Positions 6,553-33,134 of a stretch of 64,000 nucleotides of DNA are shown one piece after another. How positions within the stretch are numbered: position 1 is the stretch's first letter; each line of letters starts with the position of its first letter. This DNA comes from an uncultured delta proteobacterium (GTDB taxonomy: Bacteria > Myxococcota_A > Polyangia > Polyangiales > Polyangiaceae). Made by a program: the position numbers and the translations under genes. Location of the stretch: the NCBI GenBank assembly GCA_963850305.1, contig CAWKKR010000003.1, positions 51,133 through 115,132 on the forward strand, written 5' to 3'. The notes under the pieces were generated by a model, which ran no database searches, was not told the DNA's origin, and was given only the letters and a program-made list of their open reading frames with translations.

Positions 6553-6558
6553 GGGTCC

Positions 6559-9667: not shown

Positions 9668-9671
<4 letters not shown>
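8817..9671 (+). CDS. atpG: F1 subunit gamma
   Basis: VVQAMRTLAS, SEHGFVGALN, EQAARFVAMDAA, RQEAITSEILEI. Confidence 0.93.
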
Positions 9672-11482
<1,811 letters not shown>

Positions 11483-11484
11483 CC

Positions 11485-11778
11485 GTGGCCGAGAACTCGC
11501 GGAAGCCTCGAGATCGCGACGCGGACCGGATGAGCCATAGCGTCGCGCGGTTCGGCGAACGGCGGCGAAAGTGGAGGGACGATGCGGGGCGCACCCTCCT
11601 CGCCGCGTTCAACCTGACGGGCATCGGATGGGTCGTCGTCGTGCCCACCGTCCTTGGCTTCGTGCTGGGTCACTACCTCGACGCCCGATTCTCTAGCGGC
11701 ATCACGCTCGCCGCGGGCATGGGTTTCCTCGGGCTCGGCCTCGGGTGCTGGTCGGCGTGGCGGCGCATCGAGCGATGA
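11485..11778 (+). CDS. atpQ: N-ATPase AtpQ (AtpZ/AtpI family)
   Basis: GIGWVVVVPTVLGFVLGHYLD...GLGLGCWSAWRRI. Confidence 0.85.
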   Translation: MAENSRKPRDRDADRMSHSVARFGERRRKWRDDAGRTLLAAFNLTGIGWVVVVPTVLGFVLGHYLDARFSSGITLAAGMGFLGLGLGCWSAWRRIER

Positions 11779-12982: not shown

Positions 12983-15725
12983 TCATCGGCTCCCCGTATG
13001 ACGGTTGCCCTTCGCGTCTTTCCAGAGAATGCGATTGAGTTTGCGCGAATCGACGGCGTCGGGCCGTGAGAAGTCCATGGCCATCGACGCCGCCGCCCCG
13101 GGCGCGGCGCTCGTGTTCGTCTGGTAAATGAGGCCATCGTCACGGTTGCGGTAGTCGGCCGAGAAGGGCGGCTGGTCCCCCGCGCCGGAGAAGAGCGGAG
13201 CCATCACGGGTGCATAGGCGTCGTTGGCGTTCATGGGAGGCAGGCCGAGGAGCGCCTCGATGGTGTGGACCAGGCTCACGGTCGTGTAGAAGTGGTGGTC
13301 GACGAACGGCATCGCCAGCCGCGGCGCATACTTGCTGACGACGAACGCGGTGCTGCGGTGCGCGTCCACGTGATCGGCGCCGTTCTGCGCGTCGTCCTCG
13401 AGCACGAGGATGGCCGTGTCGTCCCAGAACGCGCTGTGCGAGACGGCTTCCACGATCCGGCCGAGCGCGAGAATCGTTGTCCGCGACCGAAGCAGCAGGA
13501 CGCGCCATGCCGGGCCGCGTGCCTCCCGTGTGGTCGTCGGGGAGCCTCATCACCATCAGCTGGGGCATCGAGTCGCGGCCTCGCGCGCGATCACGCACGA
13601 ACCCCTCGAACTCCACGAGAAACTCGTCGGCGCGGAGCTGATCCGGATAGTCGAGCTGGAAGCCCGGGAAGTAAGGGTCGAAGCGGTCACGGAGCTCCGG
13701 CTTGGTCGCCACCGCGAGAACGGGCACCGGCAGTTGCCACGGCCAAGGGCTCTTGCCGCCGGGAGGCTGACCGACGCGCGCCGGCAGCGCTTCCCCGGGA
13801 TGGATCGTGGGATGCGTACAGCGCTCGGCGAGCAGCTGCGCGTAACGCGCGAGGTAAGAAGGAAGTTTCCGGTCGCACCAGATGGTGGAGATGAACTCGC
13901 CGTAGTCGCGGAACGTCACCCGCCGGCGCACGGCGTTCGCCCAGAGGTACCCCGTCGCCGGTTCGTCGACGTCGGGCAGTTGCTGGAGCATCGGAATGTC
14001 TCCGGCGGCCTCGCCTTCGTAATCGTACGTGTGCTCCTTGCCGCGATAGACGATCTGCCAGGTCTTCTCGGTGTAGTCGGTCGTGATCGCCGCGGTCGAC
14101 CACACGTGTCCGTCGCCGGAGACCTCCGCACTGTCGTAGAAGTCGTCGACGACTCCGAAGCGGAGCGCGAGGAGATGCTGGTTCGGCGTGATCTCGCGAC
14201 CGTACATGGTGAGCGAGGGGTCGCCGTCGCCGACGCCCAGATCGCCGAGGATCTGATCGTAGGTCCGATTCTCCTTGATGATGTAGATGACGTGGCGAAT
14301 GGGATTCGGCCGGGAGGAAAACAGGGGCGCGATCTTCGCGTCGAGGTGGTTGTTCTCGACGACTTCCGCCGTCAGCTCCGGAAGCCGCTTTTCGGTGGCC
14401 TCGAGATCCATGCGCGCGATGGAGCCGTGCAGGAGAGCGGCGATGTACGGGTGAGGCTGGCCACCGGCGTAGGCGTTCGGCGTGGTGCCGCGCCCTTTGC
14501 CCGACGCGACGAGAAGCTCGTTTCCATGAACGGCGAGCGCGGTCGGATACCACTCGGTGGGAATGAATCCGAGGGGCGCCGGTGCTTGCGGCGCAGCCCC
14601 CGAGGAGAGATCGAACACCGCAACCGCGTTCGCGGAGGAATCGGCGACCAGGAGCTGCTTGCCGTCGGGCGTGATCGCGAGCGCCGTCGGGAAGGAGCCC
14701 GCGTACTGCTGGTTCGGCAGAAGCGTGGACAGATAGCTCCGCACCGCATGTGTGTCCGTGTCGATGACCGCGACCTGATCGGCGTTGGCGAGCGCGACGA
14801 AGAGCGACTTCTCGTCGGGGCTCAGGACCATCGCCGTGGGGTGCGGACCCGCCGCCGTGCGGGACGCCGGCTTCGAGACGGAGATCCGCCGGCTCGTTCC
14901 ATCGCCGAGGTCGAGCTCCGCGATCTCGGACGCGTTCCAGAGGCTGACCCACGCGCGCCGGCCGTCGCGGCTCACGACGACCGTGTACGGAAACGAAGAC
15001 GGGATGCTGTCCGCCGTGCTGAGGTCGAAGCGACGCAGGACGGCGCCGCTCGTCGCATCCATCAGCACGGCGTCGTCGGAGAGATCGTCCGCCACGAGGA
15101 GCTTTTCGCCCGACTCGGTGACGAAATCGGCGATGCCCGCCGGATAGGGCACGGCGTAGCCAAGCGGCTCGCCCGCCGAGGCGCTCGACGCCTTCTTGCC
15201 AGCCGGCACCATGGCCGGGGGGATCGGCAGAAAGCGCTCGGGCCTGACCGTCCCGCGGGCGAACGTGTACACCGCAATCCCGTTTCCGGTGCTGCCCCGC
15301 TCCTTTCCGAGTGGGTCGGTGATCGACGCGATCGACGCGAACAGACGATCGCCCGTTCGATCGAACGTCAGCCCCAGAAAATACGTCTGCCGTGCCTGAA
15401 AGCCGAGCCTCGGATCGGCGAACTGAGTGATGCGATGCGTCCGGAGGTCCAGGACGACGATCCCCTGGTGCAGATCGTTCTCTGGCGTACCGTAACCGCA
15501 GTCGAGCAGCGCCGCATAGCGACCGCTGGGATCGAGCGCGAGGGTCGTCGGAAATCCTCCGGCGACGTGAGGCTCGCCGGGCACGGGGAGCAACAGGCTC
15601 TTGCTGCTCGGAAGCTGAATGGCGCTCCGCGGCGCCGCCTGCTGAGCCCGCGCCGCGCAGGCCCGGAGAACCAGGAGCAACACGAGGGCGCACCGAGCCG
15701 AGATCCGTGGCGCTTGCCTGAGCAC
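12983..15725 (-). CDS. Secreted YVTN/YncE beta-propeller plus alkaline-phosphatase-superfamily phosphoesterase; +1 frameshift at ~13472
   Basis: IPTEWYPT, HVIYIIKENRTYDQILGD, SGDGH, LPDDHTGG, ADND(LALGRIVEA), EDDAQNGADHVDAHRS. Removing one base in GAATC (13471-13475) fuses the two ORFs. Start uncertain. Confidence 0.88.
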
Positions 15726-15813
15726 CGGCCGAAACTCGCACGGCGTCCCGGCGAGCTGCAAGTCGAAGTCGCCGAGCTCGTCGATGGCGACCGATGGCAG
15801 CGCACGCTCGATG

Positions 15814-16698
15814 TCAGAATGTGACGGACGCGACTGCCCGCCCGAGCAGCGCCGGTGCGCCCCCGCCCAGGCCGAAGGCGGGACCGGCGGCGAGCGAGAC
15901 GCGATCGTTCGCCCACGCCAGCGACAAGCTCGCGAAGTCGCGGGCGCCACCTTCGGCGTCGTGCGACCAGGCGTCTTCGATTTCTTGAACCACGTACTCT
16001 GCGCCAATGCGCAGGCGATCCACGACGCGCACCGACGTGCCGGCGTCCACGTAGAGGTCGATGGCATCTCGGCCCGGCGCAAACGCGTGCTCCGCGTGAA
16101 CCAGGCCAGCGAAGCGCAGCCGGTCCACGTCATACGTGGCAGTGACGGCGCCGTAAGCAACGCTCGTCTCGGCGAAGTCGCGGAGATAGGCGCCATCCAG
16201 GGCCACGCGGAAGTGCTCCGAGTCCGGGTCCGTCACGAGAAAGCGCGCGCCGGCCTCGAACGCGCCACGAACTCTGGACTCGTTCTCGAGCGGCGGCGCG
16301 AGATATGCCGTCGCAAAGGGCGCGAAGCGGTCCAGAATTCCGAGCTCGAAGTGAAGCTCATTCACCAGTCCACTGCGACCGACGTTCGCGGCCAGCGGTC
16401 GGACCGCGGCGCCGATCGAAGTGTAGCTCGGCGAATAGGAGACCAACGGCTCGAGTGGCGCGGGCAGACGAGGATCGACCAGATAGAGCAAGGGGCGATC
16501 GAGCGTCTCGCTGCGGCGATCCCGGTCGGTCTTGCGATCCGCGACGGATCGAGGCTCGTCTGCAGTCGTCGACCCGTACGAGGGGTCCGTCGGCGCGGGC
16601 GCCGGTTCCACCGTCGCGTCGAAGTCTTCAGCCGCAAGGGCAGCGCCGGGGAGGATCGTCGCAACGAGTGCGGTCGTGCAGAGCCATGCGATATGCAT
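15814..16698 (-). CDS. Secreted hypothetical protein, probable outer-membrane beta-barrel
   Basis: Signal peptide (AALA-AE), alternating amphipathic strands, C-terminal Phe (ASVTF). Confidence 0.6.
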   Translation of the reverse strand: MHIAWLCTTALVATILPGAALAAEDFDATVEPAPAPTDPSYGSTTADEPRSVADRKTDRDRRSETLDRPLLYLVDPRLPAPLEPLVSYSPSYTSIGAAVRPLAANVGRSGLVNELHFELGILDRFAPFATAYLAPPLENESRVRGAFEAGARFLVTDPDSEHFRVALDGAYLRDFAETSVAYGAVTATYDVDRLRFAGLVHAEHAFAPGRDAIDLYVDAGTSVRVVDRLRIGAEYVVQEIEDAWSHDAEGGARDFASLSLAWANDRVSLAAGPAFGLGGGAPALLGRAVASVTF

Positions 16699-16782: not shown

Positions 16783-17412
16783 TCACTTCCGCGCTTCAGC
16801 CGCGAGCACCCAGCCGTGCGCGATCGCGCGCACCCGCGCTCTCCGGAGACCGACGCCGATCAGCAATTCAAGTAGCCTGTGCTGGTCGAGCTTCGTCGGA
16901 TGCAGGTTGCGCCGGCTGAACCCCTGGGTCCGGGCGACGGCCTCGAGCACCGTGTCCTCGATCACCCGGAGCGACGCGGAGCCGTAGTTCGGCGTCGTCA
17001 AGAACATGAGCCCACCCGGCCGGAGCACACGCAGCGCCTCCCGGAGCCACGGCTCGGGAGCCCGCACGTGCTCGATGACGTCCATGGATGCGACCATGTC
17101 GAAGGTCGAGTCCTCGTACGGGAGGGGCGCGTTCATCCGGACCACGTCGGCGCGCTCGACGGCCCCTCCGTGGAGCTCTCGCGCTAGCTCGACCGCTCGC
17201 GCATCGACGTCGCAGAGGGTGAAACGCTTTTCATTGCACGTGAGCTCCGGGAGCTCGAGAAATGGCCCCGACCCGATGTTGAGCACCCGCGTCCCCTCGC
17301 TCGAATGGAGCGCGTGGTCGAGTTCGCGCACTATGGGCGCATGATAGAGGCTCCACGGGAACCGGAGCTTGTGCCGGTGATTGGAGAAGTAGTCGACCGC
17401 TTCGGCGCTCAT
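16783..17412 (-). CDS. Class I SAM-dependent methyltransferase
   Basis: VLNIGSG, LPYEDSTFD, DVIEHV, RVLRPGG, TTPN. ATGA overlap with the upstream gene. Confidence 0.9.
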   Translation of the reverse strand: MSAEAVDYFSNHRHKLRFPWSLYHAPIVRELDHALHSSEGTRVLNIGSGPFLELPELTCNEKRFTLCDVDARAVELARELHGGAVERADVVRMNAPLPYEDSTFDMVASMDVIEHVRAPEPWLREALRVLRPGGLMFLTTPNYGSASLRVIEDTVLEAVARTQGFSRRNLHPTKLDQHRLLELLIGVGLRRARVRAIAHGWVLAAEARK

Positions 17413-18350
17413 CGGTCGGGGCGCCTCGCGACGATCAGAAACTCCGCGGTCGGCGCGCCGTCGGCGCGCGCCATCACGCTTCCCACGAGCTCGTAGACGG
17501 GGCGCGCGAAGATCCGGCGCAAGGCGGGAAAGTTCGTCCAGCGCGTCGTCAGGTGCTTGTTCACCCACCCGGCGAGCGACGGCAGGAGAAACGCTTCGAA
17601 AGCCACCGTCGTCGCGGTCGAAAGCACGGGTTCGACGCGGAGGACCTCGAGCTCCGACTCTTCCACGACGCCCCGCCAGCCCATTTCGTCGTAAAGATGA
17701 TGATGCTTGAAGAAGCGATCGATGGTCCGCTGCAGACCGTGTCCGGCGGCGGCCGCGCCGACGCGCTTCAGTGCACGCACGGTCGCGAAGTGGCTCGCCC
17801 ACTCGGCGTTCGGAACGAATAGATAAGCCGTCCCTCCCGGACGCAGCGACCTCCAGATGGTGCGCAACGCGAGATCGATCCGGGGAACGTGCTCGAGCGA
17901 ACAGTTCGCGACGCAGGTGGCGAAGAACCCTTCCGGAAGCCCTGCTCGTGTCACGTCGCCCAGGATCACCTGCCGGTAAGCCTGGCTCGTCGCGGCCCAG
18001 CGTCCCTCCGCACCGTCGACGTCGATCCCCCACACCTCCACGTCCCCGAACGCGATCGCCGCGAAGAGCCCGTCGCCACAACCGACGTCGAGCACTGGCC
18101 CCGGGCAAGGATGACGCCTCACCACGGAAAGACGCGCGCATTCTTTGATCGCGAGCGCGGTCGGAGTGTGGGGGAAGTACCGCCGAAAGTCGTCGAAAGC
18201 GATCTCCGGGCCGATCTGGGTTGGGGCGCGCGCGCCGTCGCGCACGGCGCGCAACCGAGCGCGGCTCGCCGTCATGGTGCGGCGCACGCTGGAGGGGTTC
18301 GCGCCGCTCTCTTCGGTGACGGCCACGGCCGGTGTCCATCGCTGGGTCAC
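17409..18350 (-). CDS. Class I SAM-dependent methyltransferase
   Basis: VLDVGCGDG, NCSLEHVP, LRPGG. GTG start overlaps the upstream stop. Confidence 0.88.
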   Translation of the reverse strand: MTQRWTPAVAVTEESGANPSSVRRTMTASRARLRAVRDGARAPTQIGPEIAFDDFRRYFPHTPTALAIKECARLSVVRRHPCPGPVLDVGCGDGLFAAIAFGDVEVWGIDVDGAEGRWAATSQAYRQVILGDVTRAGLPEGFFATCVANCSLEHVPRIDLALRTIWRSLRPGGTAYLFVPNAEWASHFATVRALKRVGAAAAGHGLQRTIDRFFKHHHLYDEMGWRGVVEESELEVLRVEPVLSTATTVAFEAFLLPSLAGWVNKHLTTRWTNFPALRRIFARPVYELVGSVMARADGAPTAEFLIVARRPDR

Positions 18351-19852
18351 TGCGTTCTCTCCTCGGTAACTGCCGGGCGCGGGGACCGATACGCCCACCA
18401 ATCGCCCTCGTGAAAGATCGGCTCCATCGCGTGCGCGCGGAACAAGGCCAGGGTGCGCTCGGCCGCGGCGTGAATGAGAAAGACGTCGTATCGATCGAGC
18501 TCGGCGGCCGAGAGCCACTCCGGATGCCATTCCGCACCGCCTGGCATTCCGGGAACGAACGCCCCGACGTATCGAATGACGCTCGTCGGGTACATCGCGA
18601 ACGAGTAGCCTTGAAGGCCGCCTTTCTCCGCCATGTAATAGGCGGACAGATGCAGGAGCGCGGGCAACCCGGGGAATGCCGAACTCTCTCGTCCGAACAC
18701 GACGGGCCGCACGCTCAGGCCTTCCGGCATCTGCGCGACGAAATCACGGACGGGGCGCGTCTCCTTCGTGAACGCGGCCAGGCGCACCGCGAGCAACGAG
18801 AACCAGGTCCCTACGAACACCGGCACGACGCGCGACACCCATGAGGCGCGCAAGCGCTCACGCGGCTCGAACGCGACCAGCAGTGCCGGCACGAAGAACG
18901 CGGCAAATCGTGGATGGAGCGGCCCGAACCCGCTCAGCATGATCGGAAACAGGCAGAACGCGGCCAGGAGGAGCGCAAGCGGTGCCCAGCGCTCCGGATG
19001 TCGCGCTGGTCGACCGAGCGCCACTGCGACCAGAGCGAGCGTTGCGTAGCCAAAGAGGAGCGCCACATGGTCCGCGGCCGACGCTGCGAACCAGAGCGCC
19101 GGAGAAGAGAAGAGCTCGAGCCCCCGCGGCGCCCACACGGTGGCGCCGATGGTGCGAATCGAGCCCCCTGGCGCAACCCAGACGGCCCACAGCACCGCCG
19201 GCGCAGAGAGCGGCAGAAGGCGGGCGAAGAGACGCCCGCCGCCGCGAAGTAACGAGGGACCGACCATCATCACCGCGACGCCGAGAGCGAACCCGTGCAT
19301 CACCAGCGTCGCCGAGAGCAAGACCGCGAGCACGAGCCCATGGGCCAGTGTCGGCGCTTCGCGGTGCGCAAGCGCGGCCGACATCGAGAAAAGCACGAAG
19401 GGCATCGCCGCGATGAAGCTCACGAGCCCGAAGTAGAATGGATACCCAAGCCCGAGCGGCAAACCGAGCAGCCCGAGCCAGGGCGGGTACCCCAGACGCC
19501 GCACGAGCCGCGAAAACGCGAACCAGTAAAGGACCGCCGAGCCCCAGACCACTCCCTTCAGTGCCGCCACGACGCCCACCCATCCGGCGAGGACGCGAGC
19601 CGCCGCGTACGCTCCGAGATAGGGCGTTCCGAGATTGAGCCTGAAATAGCGGGTCATCGGGAAGCGCGGATCGTGCAGATGCAGCCACACGCTGATCTGC
19701 GCCGCGTGCTGCGGCAGATCGACCATCGGCAGATACGGCGTCACGGCGAACGCCACGAGCAAGGCGGCCGAGAACCCCATTGCCGTCACTGCGTCGCGTG
19801 AGACGCCGAATGCCCAATCGCGGGGCTCCGAGCGAACACTCTCCACGAACAT
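18347..19852 (-). CDS. Polytopic membrane protein, possible GT-C-fold transferase
   Basis: YLPMVDLPQHAAQ, GTPY, about 10 TM segments, soluble C-terminal region. Confidence 0.65.
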   Translation of the reverse strand: MFVESVRSEPRDWAFGVSRDAVTAMGFSAALLVAFAVTPYLPMVDLPQHAAQISVWLHLHDPRFPMTRYFRLNLGTPYLGAYAAARVLAGWVGVVAALKGVVWGSAVLYWFAFSRLVRRLGYPPWLGLLGLPLGLGYPFYFGLVSFIAAMPFVLFSMSAALAHREAPTLAHGLVLAVLLSATLVMHGFALGVAVMMVGPSLLRGGGRLFARLLPLSAPAVLWAVWVAPGGSIRTIGATVWAPRGLELFSSPALWFAASAADHVALLFGYATLALVAVALGRPARHPERWAPLALLLAAFCLFPIMLSGFGPLHPRFAAFFVPALLVAFEPRERLRASWVSRVVPVFVGTWFSLLAVRLAAFTKETRPVRDFVAQMPEGLSVRPVVFGRESSAFPGLPALLHLSAYYMAEKGGLQGYSFAMYPTSVIRYVGAFVPGMPGGAEWHPEWLSAAELDRYDVFLIHAAAERTLALFRAHAMEPIFHEGDWWAYRSPRPAVTEERTQ

Positions 19853-20066: not shown

Positions 20067-20486
20067 GTGCGATTTCAGTCGGCGGCCGAGCGCCTGCACC
20101 GCTTTGCGCGGGCTCTCATCGTCGGGAGCGGCGCCACCGTGGTCGACTTCTCCATCTTCACGACGTGCATCCGGGTGATTGGCGTCGCCCCCACGTCGGC
20201 GCGACTTCCGGCCCTGATGGCGGGAGCGTCGGTACAGTTCTTTGGCAACCGGACGTTCACGTTTCGCGCCCAGGCCGGCAGTCTCACTCGCCAGGCCAGG
20301 CTGTTTCTCGGCGCGGAACTGGTCACGCTCATCCTGAACTGGTCGACGTTCCGTCTGCTCGCTCCGCGGATGTCGACCCTGCCCCCCGAGATTGTCGGCT
20401 TCATGGGCTCGTTTCTCGTGTTCGTGTCCTTCGCTTACCCCGTGCGTCGGCTCGTCATTTTCCGGCTTCCGGAGCAGCAGCGCTGA
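20067..20486 (+). CDS. GtrA family (lipid-linked sugar flippase)
   Basis: RALIVGSGATVVDF...FFGNRTFTFR, about 4 TM segments, ends with RRLVIFR. Confidence 0.85.
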   Translation: MRFQSAAERLHRFARALIVGSGATVVDFSIFTTCIRVIGVAPTSARLPALMAGASVQFFGNRTFTFRAQAGSLTRQARLFLGAELVTLILNWSTFRLLAPRMSTLPPEIVGFMGSFLVFVSFAYPVRRLVIFRLPEQQR

Positions 20487-20660
20487 GCGCGTCCCACGCC
20501 TGCACACGCCGAAGCCGCGTGGCCGGGCCTCTCGCTTTCACAAATGTGACGTAACCGAGCCCCGGGCGCGAAGCGGCGTTCGCGTGACAAACATTTGTCT
20601 TTCACGTGACAACTTGATTCGGATCGCGAACAATCGTGGTTCCCGGAGGACGCGACGACC

Positions 20661-21443
20661 GTGAGCGATTCAAGGAAGGTTTGGACTTGGTGGACCTGCC
20701 TGCGGGTTGTCGCGGTGTTCAACGTGCTGCTTTGGGCGGCTACCTGCCTACCCTTCGTCGGCGCCGGCGGCGACGGTGGGTGGCAGGTCGCGTTGTCCGG
20801 CATCTTCGTCGCAGTGTGCGCCTTCCGATCCTGGCTGCCCCGCGTCGATCTCGAACGCTACTGCCTCGTCGACAGCCCGCTATCGAGCATGTTCGTCGGC
20901 CGCAGCGCCGCGACGATTGCGGAAGTCTGCTTTGCGATGCAGATCGCGTTGTGCCTGCGTCAGGTTGGCATCGCCGCCCAGCTTCCGTGGATCGTCACTG
21001 CCTCACACTTCGTCGTGCCACCACTGGTGCTGGCGCAATGCTTCTGCTGGTACAGCGTGCTCACCCTCAAGCACGTCGGCCATGCGATCGAGGAGTCGCT
21101 GTGGACCGCTACCATGGCGCTCGTCGGCATCTGTCTGCTCGCCGCTCTCGGCCACCTCGACGGCGCCGTGTTCTGGTGCGCATCCGGTGGCGCGGCGCTT
21201 GCGGTCGGCTTCGTCGCCTTCATGACGCTGGTCGACGTCCCGATGTACGTCGGTCGCTGGCGCCAAGCCCGCCGCGAACGGCGCGCGTTCCTCAGCGTGC
21301 GCGCGGGGGTACGAGATGCAATGAGCCGTCGGATCGCGACCAGACAGTGGTCGGTCTGGCGACCCGAGGTCGCGTGGCTCACCGGTTATTTCAGCGTCGC
21401 AGTCTGGCTCAGCGTCTCCCTCGTGCACTTCTCGTTGCGCTGA
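20661..21443 (+). CDS. Uncharacterised ~7-TM membrane protein
   Basis: GGAGG RBS. Motifs CAFRSWLPRVDLER, GRSAATIAE, HAIEESLW, VDVPMY, W...YFS. Confidence 0.75.
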   Translation: MSDSRKVWTWWTCLRVVAVFNVLLWAATCLPFVGAGGDGGWQVALSGIFVAVCAFRSWLPRVDLERYCLVDSPLSSMFVGRSAATIAEVCFAMQIALCLRQVGIAAQLPWIVTASHFVVPPLVLAQCFCWYSVLTLKHVGHAIEESLWTATMALVGICLLAALGHLDGAVFWCASGGAALAVGFVAFMTLVDVPMYVGRWRQARRERRAFLSVRAGVRDAMSRRIATRQWSVWRPEVAWLTGYFSVAVWLSVSLVHFSLR

Positions 21444-24641: not shown

Positions 24642-25053
24642 CGAGCCCGCCGAAGGCGGCGGGGGAGCGGTCGCGAAGCGAGCCGCGGGGGTCAAGACCC
24701 CCTTGCGAGCACGAGCCCGCCGAAGGCGGCGGGGGAGCGGTCGCGAAGCGAGCCGCGGGGGTCAAGACCCCCTTGCGAGCACGAGCCCGCCGAAGGCGGC
24801 GGGGGAGCGGTCGCGAAGCGAGCCGCGGGGGTCAAGACCCCCTTGCGAGACCGAGCCCGCCGAAGGCGGCGGGGGAGCGGTCGCGAAGCGAGCCGCGGGG
24901 GTCAAGACCCCCTTGCGAGACCGAGCCCGCCGAAGGCGGCGGGGGAGCGGTCGCGAAGCGAGCCGCGGGGGTCAAGACCCCCTTGCGAGACCGAGCCCGC
25001 CGAAGGCGGCGGGGGAGCGGTCGCGAAGCGAGCCGCGGGGGTCAAGACCCCCT
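24642..25053. repeat. Tandem array of about six 70-bp REP-like units, each with three hairpins
   Basis: Units start at 24642, 24712, 24782, 24852, 24922 and 24992. Unit: CGAGCCCGCCGAAGGCGGCGGGGGAGCGGTCGCGAAGCGAGCCGCGGGGGTCAAGACCCCCTTGCGAG(CA/AC). Confidence 0.95.
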
Positions 25054-25151
25054 CGTGCGCAGGCGCGAGATGTTGACGAAACGTCACACGCGGAATACGC
25101 GCACTGAACATTAGCCGGGTAGCGTTCGCCGGTGGCCCTCGGGTCGTTCCG

Positions 25152-26102
25152 GTGACGAGCACGTTCCAACAGCAAAGCTTTCCGGCTCCGCGCCAGCGCC
25201 TGACGCTGCCTCGGGTCGTGGCGCGGATCTTTCAGCACGAAGACGTGAACTTCCTCGTCACGAACCGCGTTCCACGGCGCTACGCGACGCTCTTCATGGG
25301 CTGGTTCAGCCAGATCGAGAGTCGCGCGTTGACTCGGCTCTCGATCGCGGTCTGGCAGCTCTTCGGTGGAGATCTCGGGCTCGACGAGGCGAAGCGGTCG
25401 GAGTTCGTGAGTCTCCAGGAGTGCTTCACGCGCGAGCTCCGTGACGGCGTGCGACCCATCGACCGCGACCCCGACGTCCTCGTGAGCCCATGCGACGCGG
25501 TGGTCGGCGCGCACGGACGGGTCGAAGCGGGCTCCTTGTTTCAGGCGAAGGGCTTTCCGTACACGCTCCGCGATCTGTTCGGAGACACGGAGCTCGCCGC
25601 CCGTTATCGCGACGCCACGTTCGTGACGCTGCGCCTGAAGTCGAACATGTATCATCGCTTCCACGCGCCCGCGGATGCCACGGTAGAACGGGTGCGATAC
25701 CTGTCCGGGGATACGTGGAACGTGAATCCCATCGCTCTCCAGCGAGTCGAGCGGCTGTTTTGCAAGAATGAGCGCGCCGTGCTCGAGCTAGGCTCGGGGG
25801 AGCCGGAAGAAGCTCTCGCCCTCGTCGCGGTTGCATCGATCCTCGTCGCGAGTATCCGGATCCACTGCACGGGCGAGGTGTTCGATCTGCGGTATCGCGG
25901 CAGAGGAATGGTGAACTGCGGGGGAGTGCAAGTCGCGAAGGGCGACGAGCTCGGCTTCTTCCAGAGCGGTTCCACGATCGTGATGTTCGCGGCCGGCGCG
26001 TTCGCCTTCGAGCCCGGCGTGAACGACGGAACCGCAATCCAGGTCGGACGAGCACTGCTCAGGCGAACTCATTCACCGAGAAAGACAGAGAGGCGAGCAT
26101 GA
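25152..26102 (+). CDS. psd: Phosphatidylserine decarboxylase family proenzyme
   Basis: FTRELRDG, VSPCD, QAKG..Y, YHRFHAP, KNER, self-cleavage motif GSTIV. Confidence 0.9.
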   Translation: MTSTFQQQSFPAPRQRLTLPRVVARIFQHEDVNFLVTNRVPRRYATLFMGWFSQIESRALTRLSIAVWQLFGGDLGLDEAKRSEFVSLQECFTRELRDGVRPIDRDPDVLVSPCDAVVGAHGRVEAGSLFQAKGFPYTLRDLFGDTELAARYRDATFVTLRLKSNMYHRFHAPADATVERVRYLSGDTWNVNPIALQRVERLFCKNERAVLELGSGEPEEALALVAVASILVASIRIHCTGEVFDLRYRGRGMVNCGGVQVAKGDELGFFQSGSTIVMFAAGAFAFEPGVNDGTAIQVGRALLRRTHSPRKTERRA

Positions 26103-26749
26103 CGGAACTCACGGCTGAATCCCACCTCAGTTTCATGGAAGAGCTGCACGAGCAGCGCTGGGACGATCATCGCTACTACCATCGGAGCCGCGTGAACCAG
26201 AGCTTGCACCTCTTGAGCGCGTGCTGCTTCCTGACGACCTACGCGCTCATTCCGGTGAACCCGCTCGCTGCCGCGATCTTCGGATGGGTCATCGCCATGT
26301 GGCCGCGACAGATCGGGCACTTCTTCTTCGAACCCAAGGGCTACGACGAGATCAACCACGTTACCTTCGAGAAGAAGGAGGAGATCAAGGTTGGGTTCAA
26401 CCTGCGGCGCAAGGTCATCCTGTTCGCGGTCTGGTCGGGCATACCGCTCCTGCTTCGAGTGAGCCCGGACGTGGCGCGATTCGTCGAGTCGCTGAGCGGC
26501 TATCGTTCGTACCAGCAGCAACTGGGCGTGCTCTGGCTCGCGCTCGCCTTTGCCGGGGTCATGGCCCGGACGCTCTGGCTCTGCGCGACCCGGAACCTCC
26601 AGACGGGGCTCGTCTGGTGCACGAAGATCCTCACCGATCCGTTCCACGACATCACGATGTACTACTCGGCCCCGCTCCACCTGCTCAGAGGGGAGTGGCT
26701 CGATCCGATGGATCACGTCGCAGCGCGGACCGAAGAGCAACCGCACTGA
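26099..26749 (+). CDS. Mpo1/DUF962-like membrane protein (putative His-ligated metalloenzyme)
   Basis: YYHRSRVNQSLH and RQIGHFFFEPK resemble the YH...N..LH and QFIGH..FE motifs of DUF962/Mpo1. Confidence 0.6.
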   Translation: MTELTAESHLSFMEELHEQRWDDHRYYHRSRVNQSLHLLSACCFLTTYALIPVNPLAAAIFGWVIAMWPRQIGHFFFEPKGYDEINHVTFEKKEEIKVGFNLRRKVILFAVWSGIPLLLRVSPDVARFVESLSGYRSYQQQLGVLWLALAFAGVMARTLWLCATRNLQTGLVWCTKILTDPFHDITMYYSAPLHLLRGEWLDPMDHVAARTEEQPH

Positions 26750-28325
26750 GCATCTCCCGGAGAACGCGCCGTTTGATGCCGCGGTTCGTGAGCGCAAGCG
26801 GGGCCGACCACCACCCGTCAGCTTGCATGGCGGTGGCGGCGGCAACGAATCGATCGGAGATCTCGCGAAAGTCATCGTCCGTCAGGTCGTGTGCGAAGAT
26901 GAGGCGCCCGCTACCAATCCAGCTGAGCGCGAGGCCCTGCGCCCGGAGGTAATATTGAAGCATCCAGTTGTAACGGCCTGGTTCGATATAGAGAGTCGTC
27001 CAGACCGAGGTCATGTTGGCAACACGAACGGGCAGGCCGCGCGATTCCAGTGCCGCGTTGAGTGAACGCGCCCGCAAATCCCAGCGCGCGTCGAGATCCC
27101 CGTAAGTGCCGCGGATCTCCGGCTCTTCGAGCCTCCGCAGAAATTCGTTCATCGTCGCCATGACGACGGGGTGGGAGTTGAACGTGCCGCGTGCGAAGCA
27201 GACGTCGGCGGGGCGATCGTCGCGGAAGCGCCGCATCAACGTACGCCGACCGCAAACCACGCCGACCGGAAGTCCACCCCCGAGAGTCTTGCCGTACGTC
27301 ACGAGATCTGCTCGAACACCGAAGTATTCCTGAGTGCCCCCGGGTGCCAGGCGAAAGCCCATGAAGACGTCGTCGATGACGAACACGATGCCGCGCGCGG
27401 TGCACACGTCACTGAGCTTCCGGAGCCACGCACCGTATGCGGCCTTGTCGTAGCGCGCCGAACGGTCGCTGCCGATGAGCGTCGAATCGCTCGGGGGCGC
27501 GCCGTTCGGGTGCATTGCCTGAATGGGGTTCACGAGCACGCACGCGATATCGTCGCGGGTCGCGAGGACGCGCAGCGTAACGTCGTCCATTTCCTTCAGC
27601 GTGTAGACCTCGTGCGCGGGGCGCGGATTGCCGACGCCCGCCTGCACGCCGTCCCACCACCCGTGATACGCGCCGCAAAAACGTACGACGTGCGAGCGCC
27701 CCGTATGGTACCGCGCGAGCCGGACCGCTTGCATGACGGCTTCCGTGCCGGACATGTGGAACGACACTTCGTCCAGCCCGGAGAGCGACTGGAGTCGCTT
27801 CACGTTGTCCGCAACAATCGGATGATAACTGCCGAGCGTGACGCCGAGCATTTTCGCGCGCTCGAACCCGCGCTCGAGAGTTTGCTTGTAGAACTCCTGC
27901 CCAAAGACGTTCACTCCATAGGAGCCGCCGAGGTCGTACGACCATCGGCCGTCGAGATCGCGAACACGAGGCCCCTCGGATTCCTCGACGAAGAAGCCGA
28001 CCTTCAGGCGCGACGCAACGTAGCGCTGGTACTGGAACGGTACACGGTACGAATTGACGAATGCCGCGTCCGAAAGTCCTCCTTGGACTTCGCTGCCGAG
28101 CGCGAGGGTCTTCGGCGAGCGCGCCAGCAACTCCGCAGCAAGGCGTTCGAACCCTTGCCGCCGGCGCTGAGCGACATCCTCCGACGCGCCGTCGGTAGCG
28201 AAGAAACTGCCCTCGCCGAACTCGTAGCGCGGAATGAGCTTGGCGACGCGGAGCGACATCTTCGCGTGACCGCGCAGGGACGGATGCTTCGCCCTGGAGA
28301 GAAGCAAGCGCGCCTTCAACATCAC
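26685..28325 (-). CDS. Class III PLP-dependent aminotransferase (GSA-aminomutase-like, N-terminally extended)
   Basis: RDLDGR..YD, SGTEA, GAYHGWWD, DDVFMGFR, TYGKTLGGGLP (PLP Lys), GTFNSHP. Confidence 0.88.
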   Translation of the reverse strand: MMLKARLLLSRAKHPSLRGHAKMSLRVAKLIPRYEFGEGSFFATDGASEDVAQRRRQGFERLAAELLARSPKTLALGSEVQGGLSDAAFVNSYRVPFQYQRYVASRLKVGFFVEESEGPRVRDLDGRWSYDLGGSYGVNVFGQEFYKQTLERGFERAKMLGVTLGSYHPIVADNVKRLQSLSGLDEVSFHMSGTEAVMQAVRLARYHTGRSHVVRFCGAYHGWWDGVQAGVGNPRPAHEVYTLKEMDDVTLRVLATRDDIACVLVNPIQAMHPNGAPPSDSTLIGSDRSARYDKAAYGAWLRKLSDVCTARGIVFVIDDVFMGFRLAPGGTQEYFGVRADLVTYGKTLGGGLPVGVVCGRRTLMRRFRDDRPADVCFARGTFNSHPVVMATMNEFLRRLEEPEIRGTYGDLDARWDLRARSLNAALESRGLPVRVANMTSVWTTLYIEPGRYNWMLQYYLRAQGLALSWIGSGRLIFAHDLTDDDFREISDRFVAAATAMQADGWWSAPLALTNRGIKRRVLREMLSAVALRSALRRDPSDRATPL

Positions 28326-31003
28326 GCGACGATTTTAGTCTCATTCGAGCCGGAAGGGTCGTCCTCCGCGGCAAGAAGAGCAAAGACCCGGGAATGGAGG
28401 TCGCTCTGACCCTTCAATTGACGACGGTACTTGTCCGAATCGAAGATGGCAGTGAACGGTTCGTCGATGCGCCGCGCTTCGGCAAACTCTCGAGCCTGGC
28501 TCCCGAGGCGCATCCGGAGACCGCCGTTCATCAGACTCTCCATGGCGTGGCGAAGCTCATCCACGTCGTGTCCACCGATCTGGATCCCGGTCACACCGTC
28601 CTCCATCAGCTCGGCAGGGCCCCCAATCGACGATACGATGACAGGCAAGCCGGAAGCCTGCGCTTCGACCGGTGCGTTCCCCCATGTGTCCGTCGTGCTC
28701 GGAAACAGCTTCACGTCCGCGGAAGCATAGGCCCGACACAGGTCCGTCCGCTCCAAAAAGCCCGTGAACGTCACGGGCAGCCCGTCGAGCAAGCGCTCGA
28801 ACTCTGCACGGTACGGGCCATCGCCGACGACGATTAGGTGCGCGTTCGGCTGGGTCTTTCGAAGCTCCCGGTACGCCTCCGCGAGCAGCTTCAAGTTCTT
28901 CTCGACACCGAGGCGGCCGACGTAAATGAACTTCACGAGTTGCTCGGCGTTGTCGAGATTGAAGCGACCCCAGAAACCCGCAGTGCGGTTCTTCGGGTGG
29001 AACCTATCGACGTCCACCCAGCGGTCGAGGATGAGGAGCTTGCGGTTCCGAAGGCCGCGCTTGTGAAGGAGGCGCGCGATGAACGCGGACGGTACGAGCA
29101 CCTCGTCGACCGCATGATAAAAGCCGATCATGTACTTCCACGCGAGCGCTTCCAGGCTGATGTCGCGCGTGTAGTTCTCCACGTATTCGGGGATGCTCGT
29201 GTGATAGGTCGCCGCGGTTTCCATCTGCAGCGCCTTGGCCGCGAACAGGCCGTAGAGCCCGATGACGCCGGGGGTGCTCAGCTGCATCTTGTTGAAGCCG
29301 GATTCCTGCAAGTACCGGAGAAGATCGAGGAAGGGCGGGAACCGGATCTGCAAGCGATCGTATTCCGGGAAGCCGAGGCGCACGACGGACGGCAGGATCT
29401 TCAGACGCCCGCGCTCGATGAAGTCACGGATCTCGGGATCGCGCGTATGCTCGTCCATTTCGTCTTCGCCGAGGCATGTCACGACGGTGAAGGCATGCTC
29501 GTGCCGGATCGCTTCGCGAATCATGCGCTTGATGCTCGCGGCCACGCCGTTGATCTCGAAGAAGGTGTCGGTGATGAGCACGACCTTACGTTGCTCGGCA
29601 AGGCCGAAGGTCTTCCGGACGTCGCGAACGATCAAGCAGTCCGAACTCTGCGCCATGAACGACATGAGGTACGGGAGCGACACCAGCGCGTTGGAGGTCA
29701 CGAGCGCGACGACCTCCTTCACGAGACCGACCAGGTTCGCCTCTCCGGCGTCGCGCAGGTTCTCCACATACCGAGCGAAGATGCGGTTCAGTAGCGTTCC
29801 GACGACCAGAAAGATCCGCTCGTCCGCCTGCGTCGCCGGGTCCAATCGGGACAGCGCGGTGTGGAACTTCGAGTCAGAGAGCAGACGACACACCTCCGAC
29901 TCGAACACCTGTTCGAAGGGTACCCCCGTGCGTGAGCGCACGTGGCGAGTGAGCGCGGGATGCGCGAGCCACCGCTGTAATTGGGCCTTCGCCAGTATCC
30001 GCAAACGATCGACGCGGCTCGCGGTATCCGAATCGAAGACCAGCCGGAGGAGCGTGTACACGGAGCCGCCGATCGGCAGCGACTTCCCTCCGTTCCCCTT
30101 CTTCCGTGTGCTGCCGTCGTAGAGCAGTTTCAAGATGGAGTGTGCGAGCGTGATGGGACCGCCGTGCAAACCCCCCGGCCGCGTCTCACGCCGCCGGATC
30201 GCGTCCACGATGTCGTTCGCGGTTGGTGCGGAGGGACCGTGCGGAAAGGTGGTCCAGGTCCTTCCGGGATTGATGCCCGAGTGGTCATCCGATCCGCCGA
30301 CGACGGCCTTCAGCCACGGGGTGTCACCCTTCGGATGGATCCCGTACCTGTTTGCGAGGCGCTCGATGTGCGTCCGGTCCAGCGTATCGAGCATCGTGCC
30401 CGTGAGTTCGTTCAGCGCCCGCGTCCGTGCGCCATTCTGGATCTCGAAGCAATTACAGAGCAGGAGTGCCTTCTCGATGTGCTGGATGCCGAGCGAGCCC
30501 TCTCGCCCGTAGGGGCGGTTTTGCGTGCTCATGAGCGGGTGCGTCATGAAGTACGCAAGCCTATTTCCGGCTGTGTTCCGACCTTCGGCCGCGATCTCCC
30601 CGTCGGCGTAAGCGATCATCTCGTACACGTTCTTGCGGAGACGATGAAGCTCCCCGAACTGCGCCTCGGTCATGTTCGCCACCGTGACGTGGATGTTGCA
30701 GCCATCCTCGGGGAACGTGGTCGTCATCTCGGCGCTGATGAAGACGTCCTCGAGACCCCGATCGAGGAGCTCACGCACCCCGTCGATGGAGTTGTGATCC
30801 GTCAGCGTCACGATGCTCATTCCCCGCTCTTTCAGCAGGCGATACACCTTGATCGGCTCCGAGTACGACTCGGGGATCGAGAAGGCGTTCGCCGCGTAGT
30901 AGTCGGTGACGTTCGACGCGTACGAGTGAAGGTGGAAGTCGACTCGGCCTCGAAGTGGGATTATTTGGATGCTCGCGGGGTACCGCTGGGTAGGAGCATC
31001 CAC
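28322..31003 (-). CDS. PHP phosphoesterase domain fused to a GT4 glycosyltransferase
   Basis: PHP motifs DFHLHS, TLTDHN, GGSDDH. GT4 motifs TDTFFEINGV, YVGRLGVEKN, FPSTTDTWGNAPVEAQASGLP. Confidence 0.9.
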   Translation of the reverse strand: MDAPTQRYPASIQIIPLRGRVDFHLHSYASNVTDYYAANAFSIPESYSEPIKVYRLLKERGMSIVTLTDHNSIDGVRELLDRGLEDVFISAEMTTTFPEDGCNIHVTVANMTEAQFGELHRLRKNVYEMIAYADGEIAAEGRNTAGNRLAYFMTHPLMSTQNRPYGREGSLGIQHIEKALLLCNCFEIQNGARTRALNELTGTMLDTLDRTHIERLANRYGIHPKGDTPWLKAVVGGSDDHSGINPGRTWTTFPHGPSAPTANDIVDAIRRRETRPGGLHGGPITLAHSILKLLYDGSTRKKGNGGKSLPIGGSVYTLLRLVFDSDTASRVDRLRILAKAQLQRWLAHPALTRHVRSRTGVPFEQVFESEVCRLLSDSKFHTALSRLDPATQADERIFLVVGTLLNRIFARYVENLRDAGEANLVGLVKEVVALVTSNALVSLPYLMSFMAQSSDCLIVRDVRKTFGLAEQRKVVLITDTFFEINGVAASIKRMIREAIRHEHAFTVVTCLGEDEMDEHTRDPEIRDFIERGRLKILPSVVRLGFPEYDRLQIRFPPFLDLLRYLQESGFNKMQLSTPGVIGLYGLFAAKALQMETAATYHTSIPEYVENYTRDISLEALAWKYMIGFYHAVDEVLVPSAFIARLLHKRGLRNRKLLILDRWVDVDRFHPKNRTAGFWGRFNLDNAEQLVKFIYVGRLGVEKNLKLLAEAYRELRKTQPNAHLIVVGDGPYRAEFERLLDGLPVTFTGFLERTDLCRAYASADVKLFPSTTDTWGNAPVEAQASGLPVIVSSIGGPAELMEDGVTGIQIGGHDVDELRHAMESLMNGGLRMRLGSQAREFAEARRIDEPFTAIFDSDKYRRQLKGQSDLHSRVFALLAAEDDPSGSNETKIVA

Positions 31004-31010
31004 CCCTATT

Positions 31011-31037
31011 GTGACCTCCGGGTGATGAACAAATGAC
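31011..31037 (-). promoter_or_regulatory. Pho-box-like triple direct repeat
   Basis: Minus strand GTCAT-N6-ATCAC-N6-GTCAC immediately upstream of the PHP-GT4 gene. Confidence 0.55.
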
Positions 31038-31358
31038 GAGTATGAAAGGACTCCGCACCGAATGAGAAACGGGTAGCGGGTCCGGAGAGAGCGGCGAAGT
31101 CACACGACACCAGGCGAGGCCTGCGACGACACGCGTGGCCTTGGATGGAGCGCGGGAACCTAGCTGCATCGCGCCAGCTCCACCGCGCTCGACGCGAGGA
31201 CAGCACGGCGCGAACTCGTCGCCACGAGACAGTCTCAGACGTGACGAGGGCCGTGCTTGATCTCCACCGAATCGTTGCTGAAAGGCCAGATCGTCCGCCT
31301 ATAGGATGCGAGCCCGATTTCCAAACGCCGCCTCGATTGTTTCCTTCGGAGGTTTCGC

Positions 31359-33134
31359 ATGACCGCTCGACATTGTGGTTCTCTCATCTCGCTGCTCGCG
31401 CTCTCGGTAGGACTCGCGAGTTGTTCGGGCTCGAACGGCAAGGACGGCGCCCCTGGCGCGAAGGGGGACACGGGCGACACCGGCGCGCCCGGAGCCAACG
31501 GAACCGACGGAACCAACGGCACCAACGGGGCCGATGGCACCAACGGCGCGCCGGGCCCAGCCGGCTCGGCCGGGCCTGCGGGACCCACCGGGCCCGCGGG
31601 ATCCACCGGGCCTGCGGGACCCACCGGGCCTGCGGGATCCACCGGGCCTGCGGGACCCGCCGGGCCTGCGGGGCCCGCCGGACCGCCGGGACCGAAAGGT
31701 GACGCGGGTCCGCCCGGACCGAAGGGTGACCCGGGAACGCTCGCCGAGTCCGCCTGGGTCGAGATCGGAGCAAATAATCAAGCCATCGCGCGGCTTCTCA
31801 CGCCGTACGGCGTGTGTCCCGCCATCACCGTGGACGGCGTCACCAGCGCCATGACCGTCCGCGCGCCGGCTGGAGCCGAGCCGATTCGCACGACCAGCAC
31901 CGATACAACGCTGAGCGCCGCGCAGACCTCGGGCAACTCGAAGGCCTCGATCTTCACGACCACGACCTGCGAGTTCTTGCTCCCTGCTGGGGCAACCACC
32001 GCCACGGTGGCCGGCATCAGCCTGCCGCTTCCGAAGGCGGTCGTGAACCGCGTCGTGATCGTGGGCGACACCGGGTGCCGCATCTCGATCGGAAACATCT
32101 ACCAGAACTGCGCCGATCCAGCGCAGTGGCCCTTCCCCGTGATCGCGGCGGCCGCCGCCGCCCTCAAGCCCGATCTCGTGCTTCACGTCGGTGACTACGA
32201 GTACCGCGACAATCCTTGCCCGCCAGGCAACACGGCCTGCGCCGGCCAGCCCTGGGGCTACGGGTCCGATGCCTGGTTCGCCGATTTCTTCGCGCCGGCC
32301 GCGCCTTTGCTGGCGGCGGCGCCCTGGGTCATCGTCCGCGGCAATCACGAGGTGTGCAACCGCGCCGGCCAGGGCTGGTACAGATACCTCGATCCGAATC
32401 CGTTCGATGGCAACGATGTCAAGACCTGCGACGATCCGGCCAACGACGCCATCGGCAACTACAACGATCCCTGGGCGGTTTCCTTCGGAGATACGCAGTT
32501 CATCGTCTTCGACTCCTCGGGTGTGGCGAAGGCCGCCTACTCGCCCCCAGCGTTTCAGCCCTACACGGACGAGCTGGCGGAAACAGGCACCCTGGCGGAC
32601 GCGAACCTGCTGAACATCTTCGCGGTTCACCACCCGATCCTCGGCTACACGGCAGCCAACCCGCCCACGGTGGGAAACGCAGGGCTGCAGTCCGTCATGA
32701 ACGCGGCATACCCCGGCAACTATTATCCCCCGAACATCGATATCGCCATCCATGGCCACGTGCACGACTTCCAGGCCTTCGACTTCACCAGCAACCACCC
32801 GGCGACCTTCGTCGCCGGGAACGGCGGCGACAACCTGGATTCGGCGCTCCCCGCTGCATTCGACCCCAACACCGACCTGCCCGCGCCGGGCACGGTCGTC
32901 AATGCGTTTGCTTACTCGCAGGAGTTCGGCTTCATGGTCATGGACCGCGTGGGTGCGGTGGGCACGCACAACTGGAAGTTTAGCTCATACCGCACCGACG
33001 GTTCGCTCATCGCCGTCTGCAGCATGGCGGCTCCGAGCGCCTGTAGCGGCACCTGTGACACCACCCCCGGCAGCCGGATCACCTGCACGGACGGCGGCGG
33101 CAACGTGGTCGGCGGCTACGACAACATCCCGTAA
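31359..33134 (+). CDS. Lipoprotein with a collagen-like stalk and a calcineurin-like metallophosphoesterase domain
   Basis: GGAGG RBS, lipobox LASC, about 35 G-X-Y triplets (~31428-31742), GDTG, HVGDY, RGNHE, HHP, HGHVH. Confidence 0.9.

Follow-up and report, generated by a model that had tools for sequence, protein, structure and literature searches.

The 64,000-nucleotide stretch of DNA analysed here (the window) holds four open reading frames arranged as two convergent pairs. On the forward strand, a paralogue of the Psd-family decarboxylases (25152-26102, 316 aa) is followed by an Mpo1-like protein (26099-26749, 216 aa), the stop codon of the former overlapping the start of the latter as ATGA. 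On the reverse strand, a PHP-GT4 protein (28322-31003, 893 aa) precedes a class III aminotransferase (26685-28325, 546 aa from GTG, or 545 aa from the ATG at 28322), and here stop and start overlap as GTGATG. The pairs share a convergent 3' overlap of 65 bp (26685-26749). The reading frames thus confirm the four genes, the coupled pairs and the overlap described in the initial annotation. Gene 20661 (20661-21443, forward strand), which the initial annotation added to these four, is an orphan six-helix membrane protein by hydropathy with no Pfam, NCBIfam or PHROG match, and only a loose associate, found beside the gene set (hereafter, the module) at 9 of 155 loci. A patatin gene (23468) and two methyltransferase genes (16786-18530) were rejected as module parts, being present only in close relatives.

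The module genes cluster far beyond chance, and the linkage expected by the initial annotation extends to other taxa. Both partners accompany the Mpo1-like gene at 66 of 75 loci, most of the misses being contig ends. Among 53 loci with at least 5 kb on each side, the aminotransferase is present at 52, the Psd paralogue at 50 and a GT4 at 48; when only loci from an even sampling of Pseudomonadota are counted, the linkage holds at 21 of 22. The proposed four-gene set stands in part: the aminotransferase and the Mpo1-like protein form a fixed core, whereas Psd and PHP-GT4 are not constant members. Psd is encoded at 96 of 108 loci with separate genes but at 0 of 36 loci of the fused type, including 0 of 13 with at least 3.5 kb on each side. 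Fusions of aminotransferase and Mpo1-like protein occur in several clades and form one open frame in 21 of the 22 loci tested; a triple fusion of GT4, aminotransferase and Mpo1-like protein (P0415) was set aside as a single sequence that did not recur in 22 loci. The N-methyltransferases PmtA and PEMT, absent from the gene list of the initial annotation, also belong to the set; they are linked or fused to the module, and clusters of PmtA-Mpo1 fusions reach 53 members. UDP-glucose dehydrogenase adjoins the module at 5 of 22 sampled loci. The module occurs in 25 of 400 evenly drawn Pseudomonadota (∼6%) and in several other phyla, and orthologues are found in dinoflagellates, chlorarachniophytes and, apparently, Euglena.

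The Psd paralogue (PS_Dcarbxylase Pfam E 9e-55) retains the catalytic triad D115/H168/S274, which aligns with Asp90, His144 and Ser254 of E. coli Psd, the self-cleavage serine is kept, and the protein is by family a pyruvoyl decarboxylase. The cleavage motif is SGST rather than LGST, and HGST is the commonest form among 57 module copies. Arg161 occupies the position of the phosphate-binding Tyr137 of the E. coli enzyme, and alignment to the latter places Met at Asp142 in the module Psd. Since a minority of the Psd family (15%) is known to have Arg there, and this residue could still bind phosphate (PMC7952604), the replacement does not prove a changed substrate. A second, housekeeping Psd in the same genome is only 30% identical to that of the window, and the module Psd is an extra copy in 31 of 31 genomes (the second match is weak in one). 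The module recalls the PS-PE-PC route, with a pyruvoyl decarboxylase bearing an Asp-His-Ser triad followed by paralogues of the phospholipid N-methyltransferases (PMC7952604); it differs in that its decarboxylase is this divergent extra copy, with Arg for Tyr137, Met for Asp142 and an HGST-type motif. The annotated module loci contain no PS synthase.

The aminotransferase is, on its sequence, a class III PLP enzyme (Aminotran_3 Pfam E 1e-26; PF00202 score of 93.9 bits against a cut-off of 30.5), and the PLP-site residues Gly193-Thr194, Tyr220, Asp318, Lys346 and Thr381 are invariant across 33 sequences. The nearest solved structures are the MycA AMT domain, glutamate-1-semialdehyde aminomutase (GSAM/HemL) and beta-transaminases, which share the fold and PLP site but are only 27-32% identical; extra N- and C-terminal helices, an N-terminal hydrophobic anchor in many orthologues and family-specific motifs set the module enzymes apart. 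Automatic annotation names the protein glutamate-1-semialdehyde aminomutase, and one could suppose that the genes are unrelated and the aminotransferase is a second HemL. We consider this highly improbable. The protein scores 162 bits against a curated hemL cut-off of 527, and a genuine hemL (588 bits) lies on another contig of the genome, in agreement with the view of the initial annotation that the enzyme is not HemL. The module clade, in which Asn replaces the Glu of the vEP motif, has an SH-aLRT support of 99% and lies apart from the genome's own HemL in a quick tree that carried long-branch warnings, and the linkage at 66 of 75 loci speaks against unrelated genes.

The Mpo1-like protein is a helical membrane protein of the Mpo1/DUF962 type, predicted to be a metal-dependent oxygenase. 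Its score against PF06127 (20.1 bits) lies under the cut-off of 24, and one fused relative clears the gathering cut-off at 38.6 bits. Asp23, His28, Asn33, His37, Arg70, Gln71, Gly73, His74, Glu78 and Asp180 are invariant in the family; in a sequence alignment of the family alone, His28, His37, His74 and Glu78 remain so down to 23% identity. The predicted model (pLDDT 91) has no meaningful match among solved folds (Foldseek E of at least 1.8; best Z of 5.8 over 51 residues). The putative resemblance to yeast Mpo1, a 2-hydroxy fatty acid dioxygenase that cleaves a C–C bond (PMC10398889), consists of the weak Pfam match and invariant His, Glu and Gln residues in a helical membrane protein. The yeast enzyme acts in sphingoid degradation, whereas the module family is fused to aminotransferases or methyltransferases in a setting of lipid synthesis. 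A query built from an alignment, though not one with a single sequence, also retrieved 55 viral contigs that encode an Mpo1-like protein. An Agt-like GT4 accompanies it on 26 of them and plcP on 24; no aminotransferase was found. This company suggests that the Mpo1-like step comes next after the GT4.

The PHP-GT4 protein joins a predicted PHP-type phosphoesterase domain (residues ∼20-300) to a GT4 domain (residues 484-839, Pfam E 7e-33). The former shows PHP-type metal motifs (HxH at 24-26, DH at 69-70 and DDH at 239-241) with no Pfam PHP match at E ≤ 0.01; a neighbour protein at one other locus (L012) has a weak PHP match. GT4 domains score over the Pfam cut-off, the D/E-x7-E motif is present as Asp772 and Glu780, and the best NCBIfam matches, all under their cut-offs, are lipid glycosyltransferases. 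At least five GT4 clades appear interchangeably in the module, the window protein belonging to one of them. PlcP is encoded in 19 of 26 module genomes compared with 134 of 375 others, and the PHP-GT4 type is present in all seven module genomes that lack PlcP and in none of the 19 that have it. Among 155 loci, PHP-GT4 (25 loci) and plcP (25 loci) never occur together, and no close PlcP was found in the window's genome, where the best match is 26%. This mutual exclusion indicates that the PHP domain likely frees diacylglycerol, and PHP-GT4 is predicted to glycosylate the product. With PHP as the complementary alternative to PlcP, the module likely works in the manner of PlcP-Agt without being a member of that system. 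PlcP-Agt remodelling in Methylosinus trichosporium OB3b pairs a metallophosphoesterase with a GT4 under phosphate starvation, the setting also proposed for the module, and yields monoglucosyl- and glucuronosyl-diacylglycerol (PMC9239053). The module differs by adding the Mpo1-like protein, the aminotransferase, Psd and often a methyltransferase, and by having the PHP domain replace PlcP in the window's genome.

Sequences ahead of these genes point to their regulation. A triple direct repeat with 11-bp spacing, similar to Pho boxes, precedes PHP-GT4 (31011-31039, reverse strand) and is kept in four relatives; it ranks first of 163 genome matches, with a matrix trained on the relatives' sites and hence partly circular. 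A weaker copy ahead of psd (25070-25098, forward strand), present in the window and the four relatives, falls under the 13-bit threshold of the genome scan, and a third repeat (20584-20612, reverse strand; rank 6) separates the gene at 20067-20486 from gene 20661. Further copies lie ahead of ppk1 (rank 5), a phoB-like gene (rank 28) and pstS (rank 74), although total matches in this genome are no more than in shuffled DNA. Across loci, a Pho-consensus matrix detects such repeats in 25 of the 148 regions ahead of the module, compared with 2 of 145 control regions. The enrichment is specific for 11-bp spacing and drops to 0-3 with shuffled matrices; the box threshold is reached at only 20 of 70 loci, and with the canonical matrix the sites in the window itself score only 8-10 bits. 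These patterns make it likely that phosphate starvation switches on the module, in keeping with the P-free lipid proposed by the initial annotation.

We propose, with a probability of roughly 0.55, that the module is a phosphate-starvation route from glycosyl-diacylglycerol to a phosphorus-free lipid with an ethanolamine- or choline-type head, predicted to replace phosphatidylethanolamine or phosphatidylcholine. Linkage, fusions, promoter repeats, catalytic motifs and gene co-distribution are its observed basis, from which we infer the order of steps. The PHP domain, in the place of PlcP, would release diacylglycerol and phosphate, and the GT4 would add a hexose or, more likely, glucuronate. 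The Mpo1-like enzyme would then oxidise or open the sugar head with O2, and the aminotransferase would place nitrogen on the resulting carbonyl. Removal of the alpha-carboxyl by the dedicated Psd would give an ethanolamine-type head, a step that is not universal given the fused type without Psd. In genomes with PmtA or PEMT, methylation of this amine would then yield a choline-type (betaine) head. Neither methyltransferase has a close match in the window's organism, whose route would therefore end with the primary amine. Several oxidations seem to be needed along the route, yet the module has no conserved neighbour that encodes an NAD-dependent sugar oxidoreductase.

The sugar ring might instead stay intact, with the Mpo1-like enzyme oxidising one sugar carbon for amination to an (N-methylated) amino-sugar glycolipid and Psd in a side role. 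Aminoglycoside C-6' aminotransferases aminate an oxidised sugar carbon in this way and are weak structural relatives of the module enzyme (E 1e-15). Such a product would agree with the amino-glycolipid of the initial annotation, require fewer oxidations and need no Psd in the fused type. We nevertheless think it rather unlikely: a dedicated, always extra and co-transcribed Psd subfamily at most separate-gene loci is left unexplained, and yeast Mpo1 cleaves a C–C bond (PMC10398889). Less probable still is a scheme with no sugar intermediate, in which the PLP enzyme would assemble the head on diacylglycerol or ceramide directly out of serine and the GT4 would be only a co-regulated neighbour. 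The GT4 does belong to several clades and is not nearby at 5 of the 53 well-flanked loci, nor at a Sphingomonas replicon locus outside those 53, and Psd with PmtA mirrors PS-PE-PC synthesis. But the GT4 lies within the same operon in most architectures, viral contigs pair the Mpo1-like gene with GT4 and plcP, and UDP-glucose dehydrogenase adjoins some loci.

The module might also strip phospholipids. ETNPPL is a class III enzyme, and a lyase of its kind could free phosphatidate from PE that Psd had made from PS, after which PHP would remove the phosphate, the GT4 would form an ordinary glycolipid and the Mpo1-like protein would trim hydroxy fatty acids. The intact Psd triad fits such a scheme, as does an Arg that could still bind phosphate (PMC7952604). 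We hold it to be improbable, since it leaves unexplained the linked or fused PmtA/PEMT, the aminotransferase-Mpo1 fusion and a near-exclusion with btaA, and since 19 of 26 genomes already have PlcP to remove head groups. Among genomes with PlcP, btaA was found in none of the 19 that have the module and in 34 of the 134 that lack it (p 0.008, kin not being independent). Across all 401 genomes the difference is not significant (p 0.15), and btaA and the module occur together in four relatives of the same genus. No btaA (PF11899) match was found in the window's genome or in the 26 sampled module genomes. BtaA and BtaB make DGTS, a phosphorus-free zwitterionic substitute for phosphatidylcholine under phosphate limitation, whose final step is N-methylation. 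The lipid we propose for the module would resemble DGTS in all these respects, although the two systems share no enzyme family.

A more specific possibility, which we advance tentatively, is that the module is a DGCC pathway common to bacteria and protists, operating through ring opening of glucuronosyl-diacylglycerol, with phages carrying the entry steps. DGCC, a phosphorus-free phosphatidylcholine substitute of haptophytes, diatoms and dinoflagellates, has a choline ether of a carboxy-acetal as its head (PMC5835749, PMC10362313). Sugar carbons C1-C2 would supply the carboxy-acetal and O5-C5-C4 the ethanolamine. The two remaining carbons, C3 and C6, would be lost as CO2, one of them when Psd decarboxylates a serine ether. 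PmtA or PEMT would complete the choline, and bacteria without a methyltransferase would make an unreported ethanolamine analogue. Dinoflagellates, a DGCC group, have an aminotransferase orthologue; among the best 120 matches they appear by name, and the minority with organism names includes no haptophyte or diatom. Against this, DGCC has been called unprecedented in bacteria (PMC7242380), and Table 1 of PMC6630716 gives it as undetected in Euglena gracilis. As this species apparently carries the orthologue, Euglena is a possible counter-case.

Both accounts cited above for its structure state that DGCC biosynthesis is unknown, and in their available portions PMC7074452 and PMC13235166 add nothing on it. 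Searches of the open literature, mostly at abstract level, found no description of this gene set and no DGCC synthase, and the usual family names have no match in the readable supplements of PMC11208175, PMC12226003 and PMC9239053. The passages on blr4582 in PMC10888616 do not identify it as a module gene.

Module genes are usually mis-named as HemL and Psd. If the proposed route is correct, it would be a third way, beside PlcP-Agt and BtaAB, of replacing phospholipids in phosphate shortage, in which enzymes would act on a glycolipid head by new chemistry and a PHP domain would serve as a phospholipase. Were the product DGCC, the module would close what has been called a conspicuous gap in the pathway of a major marine lipid (PMC5835749), and would open that pathway to tests in bacteria that can be cultured, Sphingomonas among them.

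The four open reading frames of the module, psd (25152–26102, +), the Mpo1-like gene (26099–26749, +), the aminotransferase gene (26685–28325, −) and the PHP-GT4 gene (28322–31003, −), are joined by two start/stop overlaps and a 65-bp convergent overlap, as the initial annotation had described and as we reproduced on the sequence. Their products score over the Pfam cut-off for Psd, Aminotran_3 and GT4, with the Mpo1-like match slightly under it and a PHP match absent from the search of the PHP-GT4 protein. The genome (6.26 Mb, 95% complete) carries a true hemL elsewhere, distinct from the module aminotransferase, and a separate housekeeping Psd that is 30% identical to the module Psd; a second Psd match was present in all 31 module genomes checked, one of them weak. 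Among named organisms, the locus has its closest relatives in Polyangiaceae and other Myxococcota. Positions 24642–25053 hold 5.9 copies of a 70-bp, REP/BIME-like unit at 99% identity, and the genome holds similar copies at 65 sites.

Relatives of the Mpo1-like protein number at least 8000 (every one of the 8000 candidates scored passed). In a sample of 401 Pseudomonadota genomes drawn evenly, its gene occurs in 26, among them the genome chosen as centre; in the window organism's order it occurs in 6 of 61 genomes, the organism's own included. A GTDB scan gave 46 Mpo1-like loci; with 32 further stretches added and three duplicates left out, the set comprised 75 loci, in which the linkage seen in the window extended to other taxa (aminotransferase in 71, Psd in 67, both in 66). 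Among the 53 loci with at least 5 kb on either side, the aminotransferase is present in 52, Psd in 50, any GT4 in 48, the window's own PHP-GT4 type in 10, a plcP-like gene in 11, PmtA-like and PEMT methyltransferases in 14 and 3, and UDP-glucose dehydrogenase in 5. The Mpo1-like and aminotransferase genes are opposed in 59 loci and run in the same direction in 12, so a convergent arrangement is frequent without being essential. In a FastTree phylogeny of 58 sequences, which gave long-branch warnings, the GT4s split into at least five clades; PHP fusions make up two of these. Pfam searches of 90 chosen neighbours added BtaA, PhoX, PstS, PPK2, DAG kinase and PAP2; PlcP, Agt and BtaA are the names used here for these families.

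A divergent pair of small membrane proteins without a family match is encoded at 20067–21443, with a Pho-box-like repeat common to both; the family of one of them, the six-helix protein at 20661–21443 (+), adjoins the module at 9 of 155 loci. The genes at 16786–19852 encode two class I methyltransferases and a polytopic protein of 501 aa with no family match; their link to the module is confined to same-genus relatives. The flanking beta-propeller protein at 13140–16196, whose C-terminal part reads as phosphoesterase-like, and the secreted metallophosphoesterase with collagen repeats at 31359–33134 likely serve phosphate scavenging. An F-type ATPase-like operon of odd gene order (5367–11775) reads as N-ATPase-like from its translations. 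A lone Mpo1-like gene sits amid transposases on Bradyrhizobium plasmids (L049:9001–9615, 8 records).

The module aminotransferases form their own clade; their closest solved relatives are the MycA AMT domain, GSAM and beta-transaminases. They keep the PLP residues and carry Asn at a position occupied by Glu in HemL and the PKS domain, and many orthologues bear a hydrophobic N-terminal anchor. In a PKS/NRPS cluster of the same genome, a stand-alone ACP-aminotransferase protein (L047:4226–6298, G000 C8) has Gly at the PLP lysine position. The module Psd retains the equivalents of D90/H144/S254, with the phosphate-binding Tyr137 replaced by Arg and Asp142 by Met; Arg at the former position is given for 15% of the family in PMC7952604. 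The Mpo1-like protein is confidently modelled as all helices (pLDDT 91), fold searches returned no matching solved structure, and three His, one Glu, one Gln and two Asp are invariant down to 23% identity. According to PMC10398889, yeast Mpo1 acts as an Fe2+ dioxygenase and makes 2-hydroxy acids one carbon shorter.

Gene content differs between module types. The separate-gene type makes up 108 of 155 bacterial loci, with Psd in 96 and PmtA in 28. Among the best 80 of 559 metagenome loci matched by the fused form, 36 encode an aminotransferase-Mpo1 fusion in the order GT4, fusion, PEMT; PEMT accompanies 20 and plcP 9, and Psd none of the 36, nor any of the 13 with 3.5 kb on each side. Of 22 loci checked, 21 have the fusion as a single open frame; a GT4-aminotransferase fusion was seen in one protein only (P0415; 0/22 loci). 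PmtA-Mpo1 fusions also form clusters, the largest with 53 members. The Mpo1-like gene further occurs on 55 viral contigs, with Agt-like GT4 on 26, plcP on 24, both on 23 and a PstS-like gene on 5; a separate scan of viral sequences for the aminotransferase gave no match. Ribonucleotide reductase adjoins these genes, whose neighbours look like those of T4-type phages. The set of Mpo1-like, GT4 and plcP-like genes (L099–L153), often with pstS and a fatty-acid desaturase, is possibly a host-lipid remodelling cassette; a BPL_N/GATase-like protein is encoded on 28 of the 55.

In the same 401 Pseudomonadota genomes, PlcP is present in 19 of 26 with the module versus 134 of 375 without. Each of the seven module genomes that lack PlcP has a module gene of the PHP-GT4 type (with PHP visible in six and one cut by a contig end), against none of the 19 PlcP-bearing ones; PHP-GT4 and plcP never occur together in 155 loci, and a close PlcP was not found in the window's genome. 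From this mutual absence we infer that the PHP domain does the job of PlcP. None of the 35 btaA genomes carries the module (p 0.15 over all genomes); among PlcP carriers, btaA occurs in 0 of 19 with the module versus 34 of 134 without (p 0.008, kin not being independent), and both occur together in four same-genus relatives of the window organism.

Phosphate control was assessed with a half-site matrix that we take to represent the Pho box. Of 148 intergenic regions that run into a module gene, 25 held matches of at least 14 bits, versus 2 of 145 control regions from the same loci; such matches occurred in 20 of 70 loci. Spacings of 9, 10, 12 and 13 gave 0, 0, 2 and 7 matches, and 12 column-shuffled matrices 0–3. 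A looser earlier count was 56/221 versus 2/205. The window's own sites score low on this matrix, but close relatives keep a triple 11-bp repeat upstream of PHP-GT4 and psd. With a matrix built from eight relatives' sites, the window PHP-GT4 site ranks first of 163 genome matches, which is partly circular because the training promoters are orthologous; ppk1 (rank 5), a phoB-like gene (28) and pstS (74) are picked independently. Total matches do not exceed those in shuffled DNA, and the matrix is therefore weak.

For every step from DAG release to methylation, we infer the following order. DAG would be released by PHP or PlcP and glycosylated by GT4, with glucuronate suggested by the UDP-glucose dehydrogenase neighbours; the Mpo1-like enzyme, placed directly after GT4 because of the phage gene subset, would oxidise the product, which would then be aminated by the aminotransferase and, where these are present, decarboxylated by Psd and methylated by PmtA/PEMT. 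Psd and PmtA together mirror the serine-ethanolamine-choline series.

Such a product recalls DGCC, the one betaine lipid known to carry a choline head, whose pathway is stated as unknown in PMC5835749 and PMC10362313. The carbon count fits a glucuronide minus two carbons. Eukaryotic aminotransferase orthologues, found by searching the full library and by a second search that started from a eukaryote-like sequence of the family (best 120 of 7953), are 42–48% identical to the bacterial enzyme. Named carriers among the matches listed are Effrenium voratum, Zooxanthella nutricula, Tripos fusus, Partenskyella, Thraustochytrium, Aplanochytrium, Hondaea, Rhizochromulina, Cymbomonas, Didymoeca and Euglena mutabilis; two further identifiers are presumably Bigelowiella natans and Euglena gracilis. 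The aminotransferase of Euglena and chlorarachniophytes has, fused in front of it, a long N-terminal region common to both that matches GT2 weakly. Named haptophytes and diatoms are missing from the best 120 of 7953, most of which have no species name, so this is no test of their absence. One eukaryote-like orthologue (P0151) is fused behind another membrane domain, which has no Pfam match and whose motifs we read as ceramidase-like. In the survey PMC6630716, GlcADG is present in both DGCC-positive algae, but Table 1 lists no DGCC for Euglena gracilis; bacterial DGCC is called unprecedented in PMC7242380. Moreover, one small enzyme would have to carry several oxidations, and the fused type lacks Psd. 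Weighing these points, we favor, at a probability of roughly 0.55, a module that makes a phosphorus-free amino-lipid from a glycolipid, and regard DGCC itself as a considerably less likely product.

Our literature searches found no description of the module. Lipid replacement under phosphate starvation is a known kind of system, as for MGDG and GADG in Methylosinus (PMC9239053), to which the module would add an undescribed downstream branch.
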